Positions 1-62,968 of a stretch of 64,000 nt of DNA are shown here, in pieces. Location of the stretch: IMG/VR virus record IMGVR_UViG_3300027833_000041; one strand, written 5' to 3'. How positions within the stretch are numbered: position 1 is the first letter of the stretch; each line of letters begins with the position of its first letter. A program made the position numbers and the translations under genes. Origin of the DNA: an uncultured virus (IMG/VR IMGVR_UViG_3300027833_000041). Lineage: Duplodnaviria; Heunggongvirae; Uroviricota; Caudoviricetes. The notes under the pieces were generated by a model. It was not told where the DNA came from, did no database searches, and saw only the letters and a list, made by a program, of their open reading frames with translations.

Positions 1-110
1 ACCCAAGTATCATTAAATTGATTCCACATTTTCACAATACACTCAAAAGTGTTAGTGGGTAATTCATTTTTTACATCCTTGTACATAGTTTTTACTTCAA
101 TTGTTTTCAT
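1..110 (-). CDS. Small early protein, truncated by window edge (MKTIEVKTMYKDVK...)
   Basis: Translated by hand; ATG lies within the 27-bp junction repeat; open to position 1. Confidence 0.6.
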   Translation of the reverse strand, partial: MKTIEVKTMYKDVKNELPTNTFECIVKMWNQFNDTW

Positions 111-112
111 TT

Positions 113-256
113 CTATTTTGTTTTAAAGGTTTCTTCATAAACTTTATTAAGCAACATCGTCCAAATAGGTAACTCCTCTTTAGTAGTTACTATTGGTGTG
201 TACTCACTTCTCTCAAGTTTCTCTGCTACTTGGTTTAATAATTCTAATCTTGTCAT
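113..256 (-). CDS. 47-aa early protein ending EETFKTK
   Basis: Translated by hand (MTRLELLNQVAEKL...); start and stop both lie in junction repeats. Confidence 0.65.
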   Translation of the reverse strand: MTRLELLNQVAEKLERSEYTPIVTTKEELPIWTMLLNKVYEETFKTK

Positions 257-460
257 TTCTCTTTTGTTTTAAAGGTTTCTACTACTGGTGCATAACTTTG
301 GGATACTTCACCCTTTCACCCAAACTGAACCATTAAACTCTTGGTGCATTACTTTGGGTTTCCAAAACTGCCACCAGCGAGGTGAGGATTCAACTACAAA
401 GGTTGTTTCTAATCTGCTCCATCCGTTTAAAGATTCTGTTACTTTGAATTGTGTTTTCAT
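253..460 (-). pseudogene. Cassette gene with an apparent +1 frameshift (MKTQFKVTESLNGW...)
   Basis: Stops at GGG TGA near 310; removing one G gives ...GEVSQSYAPVVETFKTKEK* ending in the junction repeat. Confidence 0.5.
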
Positions 461-681
461 TTCTCTTTTGTGTTAAAGGTTTCGTTGTAGTATTGTTCTG
501 CAGTCATCATTGATATGTGACTCACCTCATAAGCATTTATAATCACATCCTTATCTTTCTCAAGCATTGCCTTCTTGTTATTACGAATATGCTCAAGTAA
601 AGCCATTGCCACTCTTTCATCTGAGTCAAACATATGTGTTAGGTCTGACTCAAGTTTCAGTAGTTCTTGCATTGGTGTCAT
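457..681 (-). CDS. Hypothetical early protein ending ETFNTKEK
   Basis: ORF track; bounded by junction repeats. Confidence 0.75.
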   Translation of the reverse strand: MTPMQELLKLESDLTHMFDSDERVAMALLEHIRNNKKAMLEKDKDVIINAYEVSHISMMTAEQYYNETFNTKEK

Positions 682-700
682 TTCTCTTTGGTGTTAAAGG

Positions 701-931
701 TTAGTCGAGTAAAATCATATAAGCTTCAGCGTTCTCGCGGCGGAACCAACCTAAACCTTTTTGCATTACATCGTAGTGTTGGAGCAGTTGTGCACCCATA
801 ATTAGGTCGTACATGCTCAGTTCTTCTGCGGTAAGCTCTACACTTTCACCGGTGAATGGGTTTGAAACCGTGTCGCCGGTGGAGTATACCGTACCGTCAA
901 ACCATTTAGGCATTTCTTGTTTATTCTGCAT
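701..931 (-). CDS. Hypothetical early protein
   Basis: ORF in a tightly packed minus-strand run. Confidence 0.75.
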   Translation of the reverse strand: MQNKQEMPKWFDGTVYSTGDTVSNPFTGESVELTAEELSMYDLIMGAQLLQHYDVMQKGLGWFRRENAEAYMILLD

Positions 932-1307
932 CTTCTATTTCATTTAAGTAGTTATCGTAATTAGTGCATAGTTCACCGATCATGTACTGTTCAATTTCGT
1001 ACATAAGATCTTCTACGTATACAACCATACTGTCGTTCCAGCTGCCGTTGAGGTGGTTGAATATTTCGTAAGGACCTGGTTGGTAGTAGTATACGTTTTC
1101 GCTTAAGATTGGACCTTCATTGTCAACGTTGATTGTCCATACTTCGTAGCCATCAGCAGTAGACTCAGTGCCTACATAAACGTCATAGTTTGCCATGTAC
1201 CTATCGGTAAAAACATAAGCGGTATCGTTAATTGTGTTGAACTCTTTAAGTATGCTATCAAAGCCCGTGAGTTCTTCAGGGTTTGTTGGTATAAATTTAG
1301 TTTCCAT
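921..1307 (-). CDS. Acidic hypothetical early protein
   Basis: ORF track; D/E/Y-rich. Confidence 0.75.
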   Translation of the reverse strand: METKFIPTNPEELTGFDSILKEFNTINDTAYVFTDRYMANYDVYVGTESTADGYEVWTINVDNEGPILSENVYYYQPGPYEIFNHLNGSWNDSMVVYVEDLMYEIEQYMIGELCTNYDNYLNEIEDAE

Positions 1308-1558
1308 TATATTACTTCGTTTTGTGGTTGAATAAGGTTTGCATCGCCGTTAAACATAGTGCGTGCGTCGGTAGGCATGTCGCTATCGCTGAATACAACT
1401 AAGTTTGAAATGTCGCGAACGGTTAGTTCGTCCCAAAATAGTGTTGAATCTAGCTTAGCTATTACCATACCTACGGTAAATTTGTAGTCTAGCTGGTTAG
1501 CAATTAGTTTTGCTTTTACGTCAGGGTTAAGACGTTCGTAAAGTGATAATCTTTTCAT
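1307..1558 (-). CDS. Hypothetical early protein
   Basis: ORF; stop/start overlap with next gene. Confidence 0.75.
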   Translation of the reverse strand: MKRLSLYERLNPDVKAKLIANQLDYKFTVGMVIAKLDSTLFWDELTVRDISNLVVFSDSDMPTDARTMFNGDANLIQPQNEVI

Positions 1559-1571
1559 AGTATATAAAGTT

Positions 1572-2156
1572 TTAAATTAATGCGTGTGCAATTAAGTACT
1601 CTTCGAGCTCAGGTACGTCAAGGTAATTCAGCAAGCTGTCGAAGGACGTAGGGTCGCCGTGGCTGTCAAGTGTTAACCCCGAGTTGAAGGACATAGGGTT
1701 GCCGTAGCCGTCAAGTGTTAGCCACTTGTCATCGAAGTTGTAGCGATCGTTTTTACTTGCCGCAACTGTTTGACGTATAGTCAGTTGCAACATTTCGAAA
1801 GCTTCGTCGTTGTTAAGGTATATGTGGTCTTGTGGTGCGGTGATGTAGTCACACATTGCATTCCAGTGAGACACAAGTTGCTCTTCGCTAAAGTCGCTTG
1901 TCCAGTCGTGACCAGGGTACAAGTTTAGCACTTCGCTGTTTTGCCATTCGCATTCCCAGCCGTGTGCGTCGATAAACGCTTGCAGTGCGGGGTGAACGCC
2001 GAACACCCAATCGGGTGAAGTGTCATGGTAGCTAATGTAGTCAGTACCGTGAGTGCCATCAGCTAGTATAGCGGAATCCGTGCCCATTGTCGACATAATG
2101 TTTACACCGAACTTTTCGTGTAGCTGTCGCTCGAAGGTATTTTTAATTGTTGTCAT
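1572..2156 (-). CDS. Acidic hypothetical early protein
   Basis: 194-aa ORF directly downstream of 34-bp motif copy 1. Confidence 0.8.
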   Translation of the reverse strand: MTTIKNTFERQLHEKFGVNIMSTMGTDSAILADGTHGTDYISYHDTSPDWVFGVHPALQAFIDAHGWECEWQNSEVLNLYPGHDWTSDFSEEQLVSHWNAMCDYITAPQDHIYLNNDEAFEMLQLTIRQTVAASKNDRYNFDDKWLTLDGYGNPMSFNSGLTLDSHGDPTSFDSLLNYLDVPELEEYLIAHALI

Positions 2157-2175
2157 TTGTTATTCGTTTATTATA

Positions 2176-2460
2176 TTATCGTTCGCTGTTCGTATTAGTT
2201 TTGTAAAAGAGCCTAGACGCTAGAATAGCTATAACCTGGTTCATTGCCGTGGCATGTACTTCATTGTAATTGTCTATGTCTTCGGTTCTTTGGTAAATGT
2301 CTTCGTCTTCAATAGGCAACTGCCATAGTAAGGTGTCGTATAAATGTTCTTCTATATAGTCGGCTATTGTCTCACATTCGTCAATGAATGCGAAATCTGG
2401 GTCGATTACTTCATGGAACATACGGCCAATTCTGTTTTCAATTATTTCTTTCGGTGTCAT
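2176..2460 (-). CDS. Very acidic early protein
   Basis: ORF track; stop codon lies inside motif copy 1. Confidence 0.75.
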   Translation of the reverse strand: MTPKEIIENRIGRMFHEVIDPDFAFIDECETIADYIEEHLYDTLLWQLPIEDEDIYQRTEDIDNYNEVHATAMNQVIAILASRLFYKTNTNSER

Positions 2461-2464
2461 AGTA

Positions 2465-2677
2465 TTATCTTAAGCATGTACCGTAGCCTTTACGCCGCGA
2501 CGACTTTGCGATCGCTGCCGCTTGAGATTGGGACATAATTTGTATTTCGTTACCTGTCTTGTGGTTTGTAATTGGTGCACAACCGTACCGCTCGGTGTTA
2601 GAGCACGACACACAGTTGGTGTAGCCGTACTTAACGCGGATTGGGTGTACTTCTCGTGTACCGCATTTGCATATCAT
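2465..2677 (-). CDS. Small Cys-rich, putative Zn-finger protein
   Basis: CKC...CVSC; downstream of motif copy 2. Confidence 0.7.
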   Translation of the reverse strand: MICKCGTREVHPIRVKYGYTNCVSCSNTERYGCAPITNHKTGNEIQIMSQSQAAAIAKSSRRKGYGTCLR

Positions 2678-2733
2678 AGTAGTTTGTTTTTGTTACAAGT
2701 ATATTATCGACACTTGCTCGTGTTAGTCTTGTA

Positions 2734-2973
2734 TTAATAATAACTGCTCGACAGAGGTCTCTTAGCAAAGTCCGGAGCGTAAGTATTGTACACTTCGATC
2801 GCTTTACTACTATGACCTAGACGCTCAAGTAGTGTAAATATCTTCGCTCGACGGTCGTATTCATTACTCCAATGGGTTTCACGCCATGGGTTTTCCATGA
2901 ATTTAAAGTCGTGTGCTTGACACTCGTTTTCCAATGCCTCAATCGAGGCCTCTATCGCAGTTATATTTGTCAT
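2734..2973 (-). CDS. Hypothetical early protein
   Basis: ORF track; coupled to upstream gene. Confidence 0.7.
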   Translation of the reverse strand: MTNITAIEASIEALENECQAHDFKFMENPWRETHWSNEYDRRAKIFTLLERLGHSSKAIEVYNTYAPDFAKRPLSSSYY

Positions 2974-3215
2974 TATCTTATTTTTTTAATTTGGCTAGCG
3001 TATGCCCAGTGGTCGTTGTCTAAATCAACCGTTACATTACGGTCGTATACTTCACTCCATTCAACTTCTTCAACTAAGTCGCCATACTTGCCGCCTCGAG
3101 TAATTTCAATACTCTCCACGGTTGCTATTTTTACTGGATCGCCACCGAAGCCGCCTCTCCACCATACTTTGTCGCCTATTTTTAATACACTCATACTAGC
3201 AGTTTTTCGCTTCAA
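2973..3215 (-). CDS. Small SH3/KOW-like beta-barrel protein
   Basis: LKIGDKVWWRGG pattern. Confidence 0.6.
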   Translation of the reverse strand: MKRKTASMSVLKIGDKVWWRGGFGGDPVKIATVESIEITRGGKYGDLVEEVEWSEVYDRNVTVDLDNDHWAYASQIKKIR

Positions 3216-3600
3216 AAGCAGTTAGCATACCCATTAGCTTCATAATATCGTTAGGGTACTTTTCGCAATTAGTGGACTCCATTTCGTAGTACGCCTGGTT
3301 AGGGTACTTGTATACTTCGTCGCACCACCCAGCTTTGTAGTACAAATCCATATGTATTTTGTGCATTGTTTTCGTCTTAATGCGCTTGTTAATTGGCCAC
3401 ATAGTAATGTTGCCTGGGTTGCAGTCTTCAACCGCTTTATTGAAGCGATTAAGTAGACCGACTCTGAATCGGTTTTCAACGAAGCCGTCAAGTGAGTGTG
3501 CCACCCGTACATAGCCGGTTGATGGATACACCGCAGCAAGGCGGCCGTTTTTCAATTGGAAGTGTAGTGTTCCCTGTTTTGTAATGTGGTAAAGTTTCAT
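3196..3600 (-). CDS. Hypothetical early protein
   Basis: Downstream of motif copy 3. Confidence 0.75.
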   Translation of the reverse strand: MKLYHITKQGTLHFQLKNGRLAAVYPSTGYVRVAHSLDGFVENRFRVGLLNRFNKAVEDCNPGNITMWPINKRIKTKTMHKIHMDLYYKAGWCDEVYKYPNQAYYEMESTNCEKYPNDIMKLMGMLTAFEAKNC

Positions 3601-3644
3601 AGTAGTTATTTTATATTCGTTTATATTATCAACACGCTATCGTA

Positions 3645-3851
3645 TTACTTTTGTAATCCCATTTGCATTTCGTAGTCCGCTACCAAGTCGTCAATATCAG
3701 TAAGTGACAACTCAACTTCGTGTTCTTCACTAGAACAATCGTCCTCGCACTCCATCTCCGCCAAAGCAAAGTGGCGCATAACATCATCCCGCAGCGCTGG
3801 GTACTTCTCAATCACCTCTCGGCAATAAGTGTATAATTGGTACAATCTCAT
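3645..3851 (-). CDS. Hypothetical early protein
   Basis: ORF track. Confidence 0.7.
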   Translation of the reverse strand: MRLYQLYTYCREVIEKYPALRDDVMRHFALAEMECEDDCSSEEHEVELSLTDIDDLVADYEMQMGLQK

Positions 3852-4081
3852 AATTCGTTTTCGTTAGTTAATTGGTACGCTTGCTCTTTAGTGCAGTAGT
3901 ACACGTCTTTCGTCCATAGTGCTGGTTTGTATTGGTGCACCATATAGTTTACGTCATCTAAGTCGTGGCGTAATTCAACGAAATTCGCTGCATTCGGCAT
4001 TTTAGTTTCGTCGTAGTCGTATAGGTATACTTGCCCGTTTGAGTAATCAAGCACCGTAACATATTTGTAAGGTCGGTTCAT
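3848..4081 (-). CDS. Hypothetical early protein
   Basis: ORF track; 4-nt overlaps with neighbours. Confidence 0.7.
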   Translation of the reverse strand: MNRPYKYVTVLDYSNGQVYLYDYDETKMPNAANFVELRHDLDDVNYMVHQYKPALWTKDVYYCTKEQAYQLTNENEL

Positions 4082-4272
4082 AATCCTTCGTATTCGTTTT
4101 CATTTAATTCTCTAACAACTTTCGTGCCTAATCCATAAGCCTTTTGGTGTGCTTGCTCCAAACTCGAAGCGTAGACAACGAAAGACTCGTCACCATAGGC
4201 ACATAAATATAACTTATCCACGGTAGTCCCAAAGTTTAGTGTGAGAGAAAGTTTTGCCCTTACGGCTAACAC
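4078..4272 (-). CDS. Hypothetical early protein (true start probably near 4220)
   Basis: ORF track. Confidence 0.55.
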   Translation of the reverse strand: MLAVRAKLSLTLNFGTTVDKLYLCAYGDESFVVYASSLEQAHQKAYGLGTKVVRELNENEYEGL

Positions 4273-4417
4273 CCTTCATACCTGTTTTAGCACTCCACTC
4301 TTTGTAATTAGTGCCACTGCAAAAGCCGAACTCCTCAGTTGCCTCAGCGTGTCTCTCCGCCATCTCCTGCTTGCGCAATTCTTCACATCGTTGCATGTAT
4401 AGTTTCATTTCAGTCAT
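4214..4417 (-). CDS. Hypothetical early protein (MTEMKLYMQ...)
   Basis: Start moved to ATG at 4417, downstream of motif copy 4. Confidence 0.7.
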   Translation of the reverse strand: MTEMKLYMQRCEELRKQEMAERHAEATEEFGFCSGTNYKEWSAKTGMKGVSRKGKTFSHTKLWDYRG

Positions 4418-4571
4418 AGTAATTTGTTTTCTTGTTACACATATATTATCGATACCCAATCGTATTAGTTTTGTAAAACAAAAGTAACAACATCATTTAC
4501 TTAAAAAAAAAGAAGGGTAGGTGTAACACTAAGCCTCTATGTACCTAAAAAAAATGTTGTAAACGAAAAAG

Positions 4572-4616
4572 GTGACAATAGCTAATTAAGTAAATATAGT
4601 AGTAGGCTAACGTCGC
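4572..4616. promoter_or_regulatory. Palindromic site A: GTGACAATAGC-N23-GCTAACGTCGC
   Basis: Inverted arms; homologous to 6494-6537 and 63582-63626. Confidence 0.7.
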
Positions 4617-4721
4617 ACTTTTGGTGGAGGTGTATAGCACTTAAAAACCTTTGTGTAGGTTGGAGTATACTCTTCCGATGTTATCTCAGCATCAGGCCGG
4701 TGTATAGCAAAAAAGAGTTAC

Positions 4722-4907
4722 TTACTCTTCGTCGCTAGGTCTGTGTATGCGGTACACAAGATCACTTGGTTCACTTGCTTTAGCTATTTCTAAGAAGCGC
4801 TCTAACTTTGCAATTGTAGGTTTAAGGTCTTCAAAAGGCTGTTGTACTGGTATCGCAGCGTATAGCATACGTAGTTCGTCAGTTGTTAAATCTAAGTAGT
4901 GTTTCAT
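4722..4907 (-). CDS. Hypothetical early protein
   Basis: Downstream of motif copy 5. Confidence 0.7.
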   Translation of the reverse strand: MKHYLDLTTDELRMLYAAIPVQQPFEDLKPTIAKLERFLEIAKASEPSDLVYRIHRPSDEE

Positions 4908-5017
4908 AAGCTTTATTTCTTTATTGTATTATCGGTTAGAGTCCGTATTGTCTTTGTGAGTTGCAACAGCACCACAGATCGTGATGCTCGCTGCAGTGAT
5001 AACTAGTAGAGCAACCA

Positions 5018-5335
5018 TTACTTGGCTGGCTCTTGTAGTTCAACAATTGCCTCACTTGACAACACATTTTTAGGTGCGTTAGTACTTTGAGACCAGTAGC
5101 CTCTCTTAGCCCAACAAGGTAGGATGTTTAACTTTGGCAACATTACTTTCAACGCTTCATCGTGGTTGTAAGTTATAGTTTGGCCTTTGTTGTTAGTGAA
5201 GGTAATCACTTGGTTGCGACCTAGCCAAGACTTGCGGACGACAAAGTTCTTGCGTTCGATTGGTGGAAAGATTTCTGCCTTTTGTTCGTTTGACATGTTG
5301 GCAATCGCTTGAGTTAATAATTCTGATTTAGTCAT
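5018..5335 (-). CDS. Hypothetical early protein
   Basis: Downstream of motif copy 6. Confidence 0.8.
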   Translation of the reverse strand: MTKSELLTQAIANMSNEQKAEIFPPIERKNFVVRKSWLGRNQVITFTNNKGQTITYNHDEALKVMLPKLNILPCWAKRGYWSQSTNAPKNVLSSEAIVELQEPAK

Positions 5336-5383
5336 AGTATTTGTTTTTATTAGTTACATTTATATTATCGAATGAGTCTCGTA

Positions 5384-5572
5384 TTACTCTTGTATGTATA
5401 GTATAGTTCCTTCTTGATGGATATGCTCAGCTGTCCACACATCGACAGTTCCATTGGACTCTACGATCACATGTGTTGGTCCCTGTGGCTCATGCTCCAG
5501 TGTGTAGATGATAGTGGCAGTTGTTAGTAGTACTAGGGCTGTAGCAGCCGCTTTAATTAAGTTAATGTTCAT
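5384..5572 (-). CDS. Small membrane-anchored or exported early protein
   Basis: N-terminal hydrophobic segment; downstream of motif copy 7. Confidence 0.7.
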   Translation of the reverse strand: MNINLIKAAATALVLLTTATIIYTLEHEPQGPTHVIVESNGTVDVWTAEHIHQEGTILYIQE

Positions 5573-5692
5573 ATTGTATCTTTTTGTTACACTTATATTA
5601 TCGAATTCACTTCGTGTTGCTCTTGTATGTATAGCATCTTAGCTTTATGTTGTGGCGCGGCGTCCGCCTGATTACGAGCCCGATTGTTGTTG

Positions 5693-5824
5693 TTAGAACA
5701 TTACATCCTCTTCGATTGCGATCTGTACTTCTAAGAACTCAAGTAGTTCTGGTGTACGTTTGAAGTCTGTTGATGAGACGATCAGGTAAAGGTCATTCAG
5801 TAGTGAGAGATTGTCGTTGTTCAT
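5693..5824 (-). CDS. 43-aa early protein (MNNDNLSLLNDLYL...)
   Basis: Translated by hand; downstream of motif copy 8. Confidence 0.65.
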   Translation of the reverse strand: MNNDNLSLLNDLYLIVSSTDFKRTPELLEFLEVQIAIEEDVMF

Positions 5825-5881
5825 ATTGTTTCTTTTAGTTACATTTATATTATCGTGGTAGGGTCGTGGTAGTTCTGTAGG

Positions 5882-6061
5882 TTAGTCACGCTCAGAGCGG
5901 TAGTCGTCGTACCATTCTTGCAGTATCAAGCAGTACTCCATCTCAACGTCTGCATCACACAGGCCTGTGATGCCTGCTCTCTCACGTCTGCTTTGGCAGA
6001 TGTTCTTTGCAATTCTGTAAGCTTCAGCCGAGCGATCTGTGTAGTATTCTAGTTTAGTCAT
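5882..6061 (-). CDS. 59-aa first early protein (MTKLEYYTDRSAEA...)
   Basis: Translated by hand; downstream of motif copy 9. Confidence 0.65.
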   Translation of the reverse strand: MTKLEYYTDRSAEAYRIAKNICQSRRERAGITGLCDADVEMEYCLILQEWYDDYRSERD

Positions 6062-6133
6062 GTTATTATCTTTTGGTTACATATATATTATCGAACACCC
6101 ATCGTGTTAAGTCTGTAATGCTATACATGCGGG

Positions 6134-6302
6134 AACAGAACCAGGTACAGGTACAGTACCAGGTACAGGACCGGGTACAGACACAGGCACAGACCAGGGT
6201 AAAAGCCAGAACATTTACAGGGAACAGGACAGAGCACAGTTAGCAGACAGCCAGGACCAGAACAGAAACCTGGTAACCTGGAACGCAAAACAGAAACAGA
6301 CA
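6134..6302 (+). repeat. Strand-biased degenerate hexamer (NNNCAG) array
   Basis: About 22 CAG versus 2 CTG; 6-nt period from 6136 to 6190. Confidence 0.85.
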
Positions 6303-6493
6303 CGGGGGCTGGTCAAAAGAATTAGCTTTCCCATTCGGGGATTACCGTTGTATATAAGTGTGTAACACAATACCCCTATATATCTAACAGTTATATTCCG
6401 GGGGATATAAAAAGGCTAATTTTGCTTTATTTATATTTAAATGAGTATAAAAAATAAAAAAAAATTCCTTCGGAATAGGTTCGTTCTAAAAAC

Positions 6494-6537
6494 GTGACGA
6501 TAGGGTATTATAGTATATAGTAATAGGCTATTGTCGC
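6494..6537. promoter_or_regulatory. Palindromic site B: GTGACGATAGG-N22-GCTATTGTCGC
   Basis: Homologous to sites A and C. Confidence 0.7.
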
Positions 6538-57656: not shown

Positions 57657-58481
57657 TTATTTGCCAACCGATAGCGGTGCTGGTATTGCAGGCTTAGGAT
57701 TGTAGTTTTTAATAGCTATATCGCTGAACTCCGGGATGATCACCTCGTTGTGCATTGTGCTATACATACCCTTGGCTAGTTCTAGTTCCGGCATATGCGG
57801 CGGCTGTACTCTAGCTAAGTATATTCTAGCTTGCTCTAAGTGATCGTTGTACAAATGGCAATCGCCAAGTTGCGCAATTAGTTTACCAGGTTTTAAATTG
57901 TTGCCTTTGGCAATCATTTCAAGTAGCAGACCGTACATTGCGATGTCATAGGGTAAACCTAGGAATACATCCGCCGAGCGTTGCTGCCACATTAAATCTA
58001 GCTCGCCATCGTTTACATACAGCTGAAAGCCGTAATGACACGGAGGCAATACCATATCTGGCATATCCGCGGGGTTCCAAGCATTAACTATCATACGGCG
58101 TGACGTAGGGTTGTTGCGTACGTCGTCCAATACATTAAACAATTGGTCGACACCGTTAAAGTCGCGCCATTGTTTGCCATATACAGGCCCTAGAGTCTCA
58201 TCAGAGCGTCCTGAGCGATCGTAATCTGCATTCCAGTATGTAACGCCGTTATCACGAAGATATTGCATGTCAGTGCGTCCGTTTGCAATCCACAGTAACT
58301 CGTGAACAGCCATCTTGTGGTACACGCGTTTGTTGGTTAACAAGGGAAAGCCTTCACTCATGTCGTGTATTAGCATCCTGCCAAATACAGAGCGCGTACC
58401 AGTACCTGTGCGATCGTCTTTCTTCTTAGCTAATAGCAGCTCTTGGATTAACGCTTTATACTGATTTTCGATGTTTGTCAT
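57657..58481 (-). CDS. thyA: Thymidylate synthase
   Basis: DRTGTGT, LPPCH, QRSADVFLGLPYD, GDCHLY; start moved to 58481. Confidence 0.97.
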   Translation of the reverse strand: MTNIENQYKALIQELLLAKKKDDRTGTGTRSVFGRMLIHDMSEGFPLLTNKRVYHKMAVHELLWIANGRTDMQYLRDNGVTYWNADYDRSGRSDETLGPVYGKQWRDFNGVDQLFNVLDDVRNNPTSRRMIVNAWNPADMPDMVLPPCHYGFQLYVNDGELDLMWQQRSADVFLGLPYDIAMYGLLLEMIAKGNNLKPGKLIAQLGDCHLYNDHLEQARIYLARVQPPHMPELELAKGMYSTMHNEVIIPEFSDIAIKNYNPKPAIPAPLSVGK

Positions 58482-60869: not shown

Positions 60870-61601
60870 TTATAATGTTTGGTTAATAAAATAGTTTCTT
60901 GGTTCAAATTCTGGGTTGTCATAAAATAACTTGTAAGCTTCAATAGCACGTTCGACTTTCTCTTTGCCACGCTCAATGAACTGCGGTGAGCAATCGAATA
61001 TACCTATTTGGTGCGTCTTCTTATCAATCGCAACGAAGACCATATCGTAACCGAATATCTTTTGGTAGATATACGCTTGGCTGTCGTAGTTGTACTTCGA
61101 AGCCGACCATCTGAAGTCGTCCAGCTTAGCTGTTGTCTTCAAGTCAACGATTAGTCCGTCGTCACGGTTGATAATATCCGCTTTGCCTTTCCAAGCAATA
61201 CCGTCGATTTCTGTGATACCAGGTAACTCGTATTCACCATCGATCGGCCGGATCAAGCCTCGGCATACATCATTAGCGAGCACTTTGTCAATCATCACTT
61301 CAAGTTGGTCAACCTCATGTTGCAGCAAACACATTTCGCCGTTTGAGATTTCTTTATACTTTTTAGTGTTTCTTGTTGAAGACTCTATAATCTTGTATTT
61401 CTTAAGCTTGTTAGGTTCAAGAATGGCAGTGTGAAAATAACCACCAACCAAGAACGCTGGTACTTGTTCTCTCGGTTTACCAAGAGCTAACGGATCTCGA
61501 AGCAACGTGGAGATGTCGCTGTTACTTAGGAATTTTTTACCAAAGTCCCCGTAGTAATGCTCGTCTTCACGTAGCTTGTCAATCGCTTCTTTGTCTATCA
61601 T
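60870..61601 (-). CDS. PD-(D/E)xK exonuclease (RecE/ExoVIII-like)
   Basis: LSNS, FHTAILEP, KGKAD, IVDLKT, YDSQAYIY. Confidence 0.85.
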   Translation of the reverse strand: MIDKEAIDKLREDEHYYGDFGKKFLSNSDISTLLRDPLALGKPREQVPAFLVGGYFHTAILEPNKLKKYKIIESSTRNTKKYKEISNGEMCLLQHEVDQLEVMIDKVLANDVCRGLIRPIDGEYELPGITEIDGIAWKGKADIINRDDGLIVDLKTTAKLDDFRWSASKYNYDSQAYIYQKIFGYDMVFVAIDKKTHQIGIFDCSPQFIERGKEKVERAIEAYKLFYDNPEFEPRNYFINQTL

Positions 61602-62140
61602 AATGTTGTTAATAGTTTTTCAACGTCAGGGGATAAGTCGTACTTTGCTTTGATAGCTTCTAACTTACCCCCTCCTTTTACATACTCCATTGCCTTAGTG
61701 AATGCAGCATCCGATGATGAAGTTATCTTAGCTTTTGGTTTGGCAGCTTTGCCGTGGCTATTACCAGCGTCAGAGTCTTGTGTGTCGTCGATAAGGAATA
61801 GGTTGCCAAGGGCATACTTTTTCCCGTACGATGATGCTGAACCGAACTTTTGAGGCATTTGCATACCTTTCTGATCGAGGTCAACACCAACGACAGCTGT
61901 GGCGTGTATAGCACTTTCGCCGTCGGTCACCGTAGCTTTGCTCTCCACAATAGGGAAAGGCTCGGCTGCAATGATGGACTCACTGACTGTTACACTAACT
62001 CCTAACTCTAATAGATAGGGCTTTGTAGCTTCTAGGATATCTTCAGCACTACGAAAGTAGTACTTACCAAAGGAATTGTAACGCGACTTTTTGGATTTGA
62101 ACTTGGTTTGAATAGTCGCAAGTTTCTCATTTAAGGTCAT
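61598..62140 (-). CDS. ERF-family single-strand annealing protein
   Basis: YYFRSAEDI, QKFGSASSYGKKYAL...DSD. Confidence 0.85.
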   Translation of the reverse strand: MTLNEKLATIQTKFKSKKSRYNSFGKYYFRSAEDILEATKPYLLELGVSVTVSESIIAAEPFPIVESKATVTDGESAIHATAVVGVDLDQKGMQMPQKFGSASSYGKKYALGNLFLIDDTQDSDAGNSHGKAAKPKAKITSSSDAAFTKAMEYVKGGGKLEAIKAKYDLSPDVEKLLTTL

Positions 62141-62212: not shown

Positions 62213-62968
62213 TTACAGAAAATCAAGCACTTGAGAAGAATCGGTGGATGCTATCAACTTGTCAATAGCGTCCTTCTTTATTTGCGAAATACGCACATTA
62301 GCGGTAGCAACACTGATACCTACTTGACTAGCGATCTGCGACGCAGGTAATTTTTGGCTGTCCAATCCGTAAGATAAGCGTAATACATCATATTGTACCG
62401 GTGTTAAATGCTCGCGCATTAAACCTAGCAAGTATGAATTCATTATTGTAATATTGTACGCTTCGTTTGTATCTGCAACCTGCATAAATGGATTATCCTC
62501 GTTGCTGAAGTGTGCATCGATGCTGGAGAACACGCTGTTAAAGAACAATGCAACCATAGCGTCATCATCCGGGTTCTTGCGTATCTCATTTAGTTTATGC
62601 TCGGGGATGCGTACGTCGCCCCTATTAATATCAATAGCGCGGCGTATCGCTCCCTTTATTCTTTTAGATAGGAATGACTTAATTGTTTTTTCAGGGTCTT
62701 CAGAATCGAGTATCTTGTCCCAGCTAATTTTGTCGACAGCGGCAACTAAGCCGTAATTACCCTCCTGTATTAAATCATTTATGCTCATAACGCCGGACGC
62801 TTGGTCTGATGTAGAAAACTTTCTCGCTAAGTTCTCAACCAATGGCATAAACTGCGCTACAAGTTGATCGCGTGACATATCGCCCCACTCTAAATTTTCA
62901 TTACGCAAGAGCACTGTTTCTAAATCAGTCTTGTATCTGACGTAATTTTGTATGTTGTATTTTTTCAT
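62213..62968 (-). CDS. Phage-encoded sigma-70-family factor
   Basis: Region 2 DLIQEGNYGL...VRIP; region 4 HTH VLRLSYGL...RISQIKKDAIDKL. Confidence 0.9.
   Translation of the reverse strand: MKKYNIQNYVRYKTDLETVLLRNENLEWGDMSRDQLVAQFMPLVENLARKFSTSDQASGVMSINDLIQEGNYGLVAAVDKISWDKILDSEDPEKTIKSFLSKRIKGAIRRAIDINRGDVRIPEHKLNEIRKNPDDDAMVALFFNSVFSSIDAHFSNEDNPFMQVADTNEAYNITIMNSYLLGLMREHLTPVQYDVLRLSYGLDSQKLPASQIASQVGISVATANVRISQIKKDAIDKLIASTDSSQVLDFL

Follow-up and report, generated by a model that had tools for sequence, protein, structure and literature searches.

A 25-nucleotide linker that serves as gene junction and swap point in several unrelated phage groups

We analysed the first 64 kb (64,000 nucleotides (nt), hereafter the window) of the 66,454-nt record of an uncultured Caudoviricetes virus, IMG/VR IMGVR_UViG_3300027833_000041; contig coordinates above 64,000 fall beyond the window. 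The window starts with an array of small genes, the cassettes, which are encoded on the minus strand and joined by copies of a short word, the linker. This word is a gene-junction linker and swap point common to several unrelated phage groups. Virus records and loci compared with this genome carry G and L numbers, and public sequencing runs X numbers. The array is anchored upstream by a backbone gene of 76 amino acids (aa; 701..931, minus strand), conserved in L129 and L130. The first linker copy (678..704) overlaps the TAA stop of this gene, occupies the same position in the relative L130, and provides the ATG of a 74-aa cassette of the MKTPMQ two-module family (457..681). The second copy (457..483) is read in frame as ETFNTKEK*, with an ATGA stop/start overlap, and is followed by the cassette MKTQFKVTESL (308..460), which has 50 aa here and 66–68 aa in relatives. 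The third copy (253..279) is non-coding in this allele and precedes the 47-aa cassette MTRLELL (113..256), whose DNA is 97% identical in L042. In the fourth copy (107..133) GAG has changed to TAG, giving the open reading frame (ORF) 113-256 an early end, and the copy supplies the ATG of the cassette MKTIEVK (1..110), which is cut by the contig end and is 100% identical over 106 nt in L061.

A preliminary description of this DNA had reported four minus-strand copies of a 27-bp repeat at junctions between small ORFs, each giving the next ORF its ATG. All four are there, with 1 (107-133), 0 (253-279), 0 (457-483) and 2 (678-704) mismatches to the 27-mer and 0 matches in 100 shuffles of the sequence, as are the ETFNTKEK* reading at 457 and the GAG to TAG change at 107. 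Two details had to be amended. The repeat exists, but its conserved core is 25 nt long, because the first two letters of the 27-mer vary. The copy at 678, said to lie after the upstream stop, is indeed non-coding, but that stop (TAA, 703-701) overlaps its first letters.

The array was also said to run off the edge of the sequence, and copies do continue at the other contig end: a fifth, exact one at contig 66315-66341, and a sixth, decayed and without ATG, at 66157-66183, where a contig of run X10 has 187 additional letters. The 66,454-nt contig lacks a terminal repeat. The backbone genes next to these two ends have, in the close relative L130, one linker, an unrelated 115-aa gene and a truncated linker between them, so that our two contig ends most likely represent opposite sides of a single array. 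L061 contains both end cassettes at 100% identity, and further cassettes lie in between. For our contig, the order of the far cassettes is uncertain, and possibly chimeric, because in run X1 only the first cassette and the last cassette of the other end show backbone-like depth; contigs with far cassettes reached 156–1545 against 42 for the backbone, a hint only, since depth is no copy number. The ORF 308-460 stops 29 nt short of the linker copy at 253, which is why this copy is non-coding here. This allele looks frameshifted or mis-assembled, since relatives read through to TFNTKEK and the contigs of runs X1 and X4 lack one base at 310, within a stretch (308-312) where the window has one more.

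The earlier proposal that genes are gained, lost and reordered exactly at the repeat was borne out by comparison of junctions. We took the first 80 of the 127 loci found by an exact-match scan for the 25-nt core across viral records, counted each contig once, paired junctions having the same flanking 60 nt, and used nearby linker-less junctions as controls. When the upstream flank was the same, the downstream partner was kept in 3 of 41 pairs at the linker, against 28 of 46 control pairs. The reverse direction gave 3 of 39 against 39 of 47, and all loci with exact duplicates collapsed gave 7 of 180 against 34 of 71. Sequence identity rises at the first base of the linker and falls from 0.91 to about 0.3 directly behind the ATGA. 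A check for a fixed gene order in relatives found instead that content and neighbours change at the linker: gene content differs there between this genome (G000) and L129/L130, between G016 and G017, and between G020 and G023. Arrays also turn up at new sites: at the stop of one gene L129 carries an array that is missing there from this genome and from L130. In addition, G025 and G029 have lone linkers between backbone genes. In G008 (L158:17126-18898) and in L133 (3131-3511) cassettes lie between the genes for the small and large ribonucleotide reductase subunits, and in G008 the ATG of the large subunit comes from a linker. The median length of units from repeat to repeat is 215 nt, and in 147 of 179 a single ORF starting at the linker ATG spans the unit; several last copies have lost the ATG.

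We estimate that about 370 viral stretches match the core. In 38 chosen records there were one to eight copies each (at most two mismatches), always on a single strand (38/38); completeness is at least 90% for ten of these records, which measure 27 to 118 kb. Using ORFs of at least 100 aa, we compared this genome with stretches of 22 records. Group A, to which this genome belongs (complete members of 59–67 kb), shares 0–14% of them with any other group; group B (complete members of 117–118 kb) shares 0–11% with C, D and E; groups C (complete members of 36–37 kb) and D (27–31 kb) are partly related (9–31%); and group E has no complete member. No such ORF family is common to all 23 compared records, the best occurring in 12. 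Given this low sharing, the same word is used by four or five phage groups with few common core genes. The cassettes themselves are shared across these groups: cassette 308-460 recurs with 94–97% DNA identity in a close relative as well as in records of groups B, C and E (94–95% in these three), and another cassette matches at 93–104 of 110 bases among groups A, B, D and E. No cultured carrier was found among 50,697 phage records, where array DNA, the 74-aa protein and a second-dialect locus (described below) gave matches at chance level only. Among 185,579 cellular genomes there were six exact matches, all in genome bins: four in multi-copy arrays, one amid phage-like small genes, and one alone (L136:4001-4025), where a chromosomal gene of the B12-binding aminomutase type begins, in a Bacteroidetes bin and within a stretch of 57% G+C. 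A literature search, judged by titles and the first parts of abstracts and leaving subscription journals mostly uncovered, returned no report of the word or of a stop/start linker crossing phage families.

Such patterns could arise if assembly or amplification crossed between co-occurring phages at the repeat. A copy lies within 200 nt of a contig end in 25 of the 80 loci (3.3 expected), public contigs break at copies, and L130:6452-9625 passes across an array from the backbone type of this genome to that of G016, so that L130 may be a hybrid phage or an assembly chimera; the depth contrast in run X1 points the same way. Yet multi-cassette orders recur in separate contigs (L004/L127, L019/L100, L098/L119), two records with terminal repeats (G005 and G029) have the linker, and linkers directly adjoin the backbone genes of each group, even inside conserved operons (G008, L133). 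Mis-joins would moreover presuppose that different phages have linker and cassettes in common. We thus regard a largely artefactual origin of the shuffling as very improbable.

The word is conserved as DNA and not as peptide, as the preliminary description had proposed. A scan in which synonymous positions were freed recovered 162 distinct copies, in which the Thr codon was ACC in 152 (17% in cassette coding DNA), the Phe codon TTT in 161 (69%), the Lys codon AAA in all 162 (65%) and the Glu codon GAG in 156 (45%). At the non-synonymous sites that were freed, variation was of similar extent (1 to 17 of 137, with the maximum at the first base of the Glu codon). Synonymous sites are no more variable than non-synonymous ones; the refutation by synonymous divergence fails, and the claim of conservation as DNA therefore stands. 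The 219 junction contexts divide as follows: TFNTKEK* is read in 108, an earlier stop precedes the linker in 33, a different frame leads to a stop at the internal TAA in 32, an upstream ORF of 20 aa is lacking in 28, and the stop lies at another offset in 18. The stop/start overlap by which the translational coupling suggested earlier might arise is found at the 108 junctions of the first class only. That first class, together with the many homologues of the 74-aa protein that terminate in TFNTKEK, is what one would expect if the peptide were conserved as a C-terminal targeting or degradation tag, with the DNA repeat as its mere reflection. We give this idea almost no credence: besides the 32 junctions read in another frame, the fixed synonymous sites and the 87 of 162 copies that terminate no in-frame ORF rule out peptide conservation as the main cause.

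The cassettes are diverse. The 205 complete ORFs of at least 45 aa fall into 122 families, and only 10 family representatives match Pfam, among them HNH, YqaJ, MazG-like and methyltransferase proteins; some of these are backbone genes behind a last linker. The 112 families without match are candidates for functions in host takeover or counter-defence. The largest family, MKTPMQ, accounts for 30 of the 205 ORFs and has conserved blocks at its start, in its middle (the LEKEKE-type block, 544..567 on the minus strand in the window) and at its end, which is the linker. The middle block is a point of half-gene exchange: 19 N-modules and 19 C-modules occur in 28 combinations in 32 genes, and pairs with the same first half share the second in only 7 of 22 cases. 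In most members it contains the same AAAGAGAAA run as the linker. A second word, read TYGGNK*, has the ATGA overlap and a GGAGG six bases ahead of the ATG (L433-L562; e.g., L454:1001-1021, L467 and L483). We estimate some 220 stretches in which this second dialect comes after the same EQYYNE tail as the linker; 103 of its 133 copies are identical. Both words occur in one array at 7 of 130 loci, in some cases overlapping. Several short blocks thus serve as joints, which fits general annealing better than one site-specific enzyme.

The preliminary description had seen no integrase in the window, and a wider search gave the same outcome. No integrase was found among the 69 and 52 ORFs scanned in this phage, and profiles of tyrosine (PF00589) and serine (PF00239) recombinases matched in 0 of 34 records (0 of 11 complete ones for PF00589), with positive controls (14/14 for PF00589); reverse transcriptase (PF00078) was likewise found in 0 of 34 records, with 3 of 14 controls positive. 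The preliminary description had pointed to the ERF/exonuclease pair of this phage, which consists of an ERF single-strand annealing protein (61598..62140, minus strand) and a RecE/exonuclease VIII-like nuclease (DUF3799; 60870..61601, minus strand). Both are candidate recombination enzymes. All of the 11 complete records have the exonuclease; in two the match falls below the family cut-off. Annealases were recognised in 7 of the 11 (ERF in three, Sak in two and Sak4 in two, with G002 assigned by clustering), so that ERF, at 3 of 11, was rejected as the common enzyme and is no general partner. Four loci have a family without known function, phrog_11717, beside the exonuclease in the place of ERF or Sak (L161:12962-13492, L162:14933-15472, L185:3292-3834 and L194:18872-19405), which makes it a candidate annealing protein. 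Separately, in the closest complete relative, G027 (L166:4544-5219), the exonuclease gene is seemingly split into a 122-aa first part and a separate 127-aa frame.

The position of linker variants bears on where exchange takes place. Variants at positions 0–3 follow the upstream gene (40/48 against 2/68), whereas positions 9, 12 and 20 show a nearly random association with the upstream side; there is therefore no single crossover base, and the pattern argues for repeated exchange inside the word without one fixed cut site. In integrons, the tyrosine recombinase IntI acts on attC sites that fold back, with a fixed crossover base, and the cassettes are promoterless single genes. The arrays described here likewise hold single promoterless genes between repeats, on one strand, and draw on a large common pool of genes of unknown function. 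They differ in having a 25-nt, asymmetric word, no IntI-type recombinase, no attC-like fold-back (four 61-nt windows at the linker folded with -0.7 to -3.8 kcal/mol under RNA parameters, z -1.15 to 1.32, with no stem-loop) and no fixed crossover base. Since swaps also occur at a second block inside genes, the mechanism that the term integron-like had implied was not upheld. A dedicated site-specific recombinase of an unrecognised family, or one supplied by the host or another element, might still act on the word in the manner of an integron; its very high fixation, the predominance of one-gene units, the lone linkers resembling empty sites in G025 and G029, and phrog_11717 beside the exonuclease would suit this idea. 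We nevertheless find it improbable, and a little more so than a role in expression, which we consider below. The two recombinase profiles are missing from all 34 records, no ORF family is found throughout the 23 compared ones, fold-back and fixed crossover are lacking, and there is both a second joint inside genes and a second dialect of the linker.

We propose instead, with a probability of roughly 0.65, that genes are exchanged by short-homology recombination at the linker through each phage's own exonuclease and annealing protein, and not by an integrase. This is likelier than an integron because crossovers are not at one base and because the commonest family swaps halves. The linker would have originated in a family of short paralogous genes (MKTPMQ/MKQTAV...EQYYNETFNTKEK), from their 3' tail together with the start codon that follows. 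Annealing of two copies, within a genome or between co-infecting phages, would delete, insert or swap whole genes, and every product would retain an unstructured leader and an ATG, so that the incoming gene would be expressed. The largest pool of recombination partners would be open to copies of the common word, and synonymous sites would stay fixed for that reason. The first linker of a new gene or site would come from a rarer non-homologous join at a stop or start codon. Red-beta is reported to require 23–27 bp of exact pairing (PMC3945230), a minimum that the 25-nt linker length matches.

Several points weigh against this proposal. Homology cannot explain how a linker is first acquired, and 25 nt is the low edge of efficient annealing. 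When identical junctions from different contigs are retained, 20 of 104 pairs keep their partner (127 loci, without control), and junction pairs are not independent. The evidence consists of assembled contigs, and no excised circle was seen in them; joints of possible excision in public-run contigs mostly have sides of less than 30 letters, and were left unused as ambiguous. The count of 11 of 11 for the exonuclease has no proper background. No annealase was recognised beside it in G021 and G029, the RecT and Rad52 profiles not having been run genome-wide, and the family next to it in G016 and G017 has no known function. A weak lean towards the downstream gene is seen for variants at positions 9 and 12 (26–29% against 11–12% at random), but not at position 20, which is nearer to that gene. 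A simple crossover model does not predict this pattern.

An expression signal is the other pressure that could hold the word constant: translation may start there, or a factor of phage or host may bind, with shuffling as a by-product. The word nearly always ends in an ATG ahead of an ORF and keeps to one strand per array, the lone match in L136 is at a chromosomal gene start, and the word is A-rich and unstructured, as starts without Shine-Dalgarno sequences are described to favour in Bacteroidetes (PMC6847099). However, the same source gives A at -3 as a positive determinant of initiation in Flavobacterium, and the word has G there; among 47 hand-picked starts of this phage, A occupies that position in 29. 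The ordinary starts of this genome have no fixed word in common, a different second word does the same job behind the same gene family, and swaps within genes would be left unexplained. We hold it unlikely that expression is the main reason for keeping the word; as a second pressure it is compatible with recombination through short homology, and the linker is probably an adequate, not an optimised, start region.

The repeats named SAS and ESAS in cluster K mycobacteriophages are a signal of this kind: they have 13 bp with a Shine-Dalgarno core, are nearly confined to one cluster, and were proposed to act in translation (Pope et al. 2011, PMC3203893). Like the linker, they are short, asymmetric repeats in one orientation, just ahead of the ATG of non-structural genes of many families. 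The AGGAG core of SAS is absent from the linker (GGAGG is present in the second dialect), and gene switching at SAS is not evident in the parts of PMC3203893 that deal with these repeats. The linker resembles SAS in position only.

Closer parallels exist. The promoter-early stem-loop (PeSL) elements, described within T4-like phages by Arbiol et al. 2010 (PMC2839356) and Comeau et al. 2014 (PMC4122927), combine a sigma-70 promoter, a stem-loop and a Shine-Dalgarno sequence. Both PeSL and linker are repeated junction elements in variable regions, before genes of unknown function, where insertion, loss or replacement affects single genes, no integrase has been identified and gene content changes between close relatives. 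The linker differs in its 25 nt without stable structure, often inside the upstream reading frame, in its near-identity across unrelated phage groups, and in the accompanying half-gene shuffling. By eye, and with no promoter scan run, no sigma-70-like promoter was seen in the 25 nt, which are too short for -35 and -10 boxes plus spacer. Rfam gave no match at the array (1-6500), its one weak match lying far from it (E 0.7). Mini-circles of PeSL cassettes have been shown by experiment according to PMC2839356 and PMC4122927, whereas linker cassettes are known here from assembled sequence alone. This genome has a second repeat family, TACAA-N-ACGA-N-CGATAATAT, with eight minus-strand copies in window 2173-6117 and a further occurrence at contig 66122-66154, about 15–35 nt ahead of early-gene starts. 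It looks like a phage promoter, the genome having a sigma factor gene at 62213-62968, and may be a closer analogue of PeSL than the linker.

A related concept comes from modular phage evolution: Clark et al. (2001) are said to have described 'boundary sequences' in HK620. As with these, and with the linkers of Botstein and Campbell, which are short conserved sequences at module edges that guide homologous exchange in lambdoid phages (PMC2839356), the word would direct homologous exchange at edges and keep expression in order. The classical linkers mark fixed module borders within one phage family, whereas here one identical word joins tandem arrays of single tiny genes in groups with few common core genes. 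By analogy, the linker would function like PeSL cassettes and Botstein-Campbell linkers, without stem-loop or room for a promoter.

Outside the array, this phage encodes GroEL/GroES, a sigma factor and ribonucleotide reductase, in addition to ERF and the exonuclease VIII-like nuclease. Its portal is 42% identical to those of Flavobacterium elemo phages and 48% to that of Maribacter phage Panino, named holders in public runs are marine, and we infer a host among the Flavobacteriia. The cultured portal relatives (elemo and Cellulophaga phages) are absent among the listed exonuclease matches (25/26), which is too weak to serve as a correlation. The 74-aa cassette protein has a confident, all-helical predicted model (pLDDT 90.5), with no named family and no fold match at E ≤ 0.001 in viral or PDB libraries; the Atlas neighbours of its family are hypothetical viral proteins throughout. 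The window also has a 41-nt direct repeat with 45-nt spacing (1638-1723) within the ORF 1572-2156, and a thymidylate synthase homologue at 57657-58481.

More tentatively, and with distinctly less confidence than we place in the recombination mechanism, we suggest that phages which infect one host group but are unrelated to each other keep a gene library in common, with the linker as the connector standard that they share. Tiny two-module genes would give the joints (start, middle and end), any gene bearing a linker would enter a pool, accessible to every carrier, of more than 120 families, and selection for compatibility with that pool would hold the word constant, with the TFNTKEK and TYGGNK dialects as partly separate networks. 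If true, this would be an integrase-free counterpart of the integron that works across phage families, with combinatorial building of proteins.

It has long been asked how phages gain and reorder their many tiny genes of unknown function, and worked cases of the linker model of modular evolution are few. The word offers a precise and countable joint, with which at least 122 gene families can be recovered by a single search or primer pair, and it shows gene flow between phage groups with almost no common core genes. Linker arrays also explain assembly breaks in these genomes, where contigs that cross an array can be chimeric.
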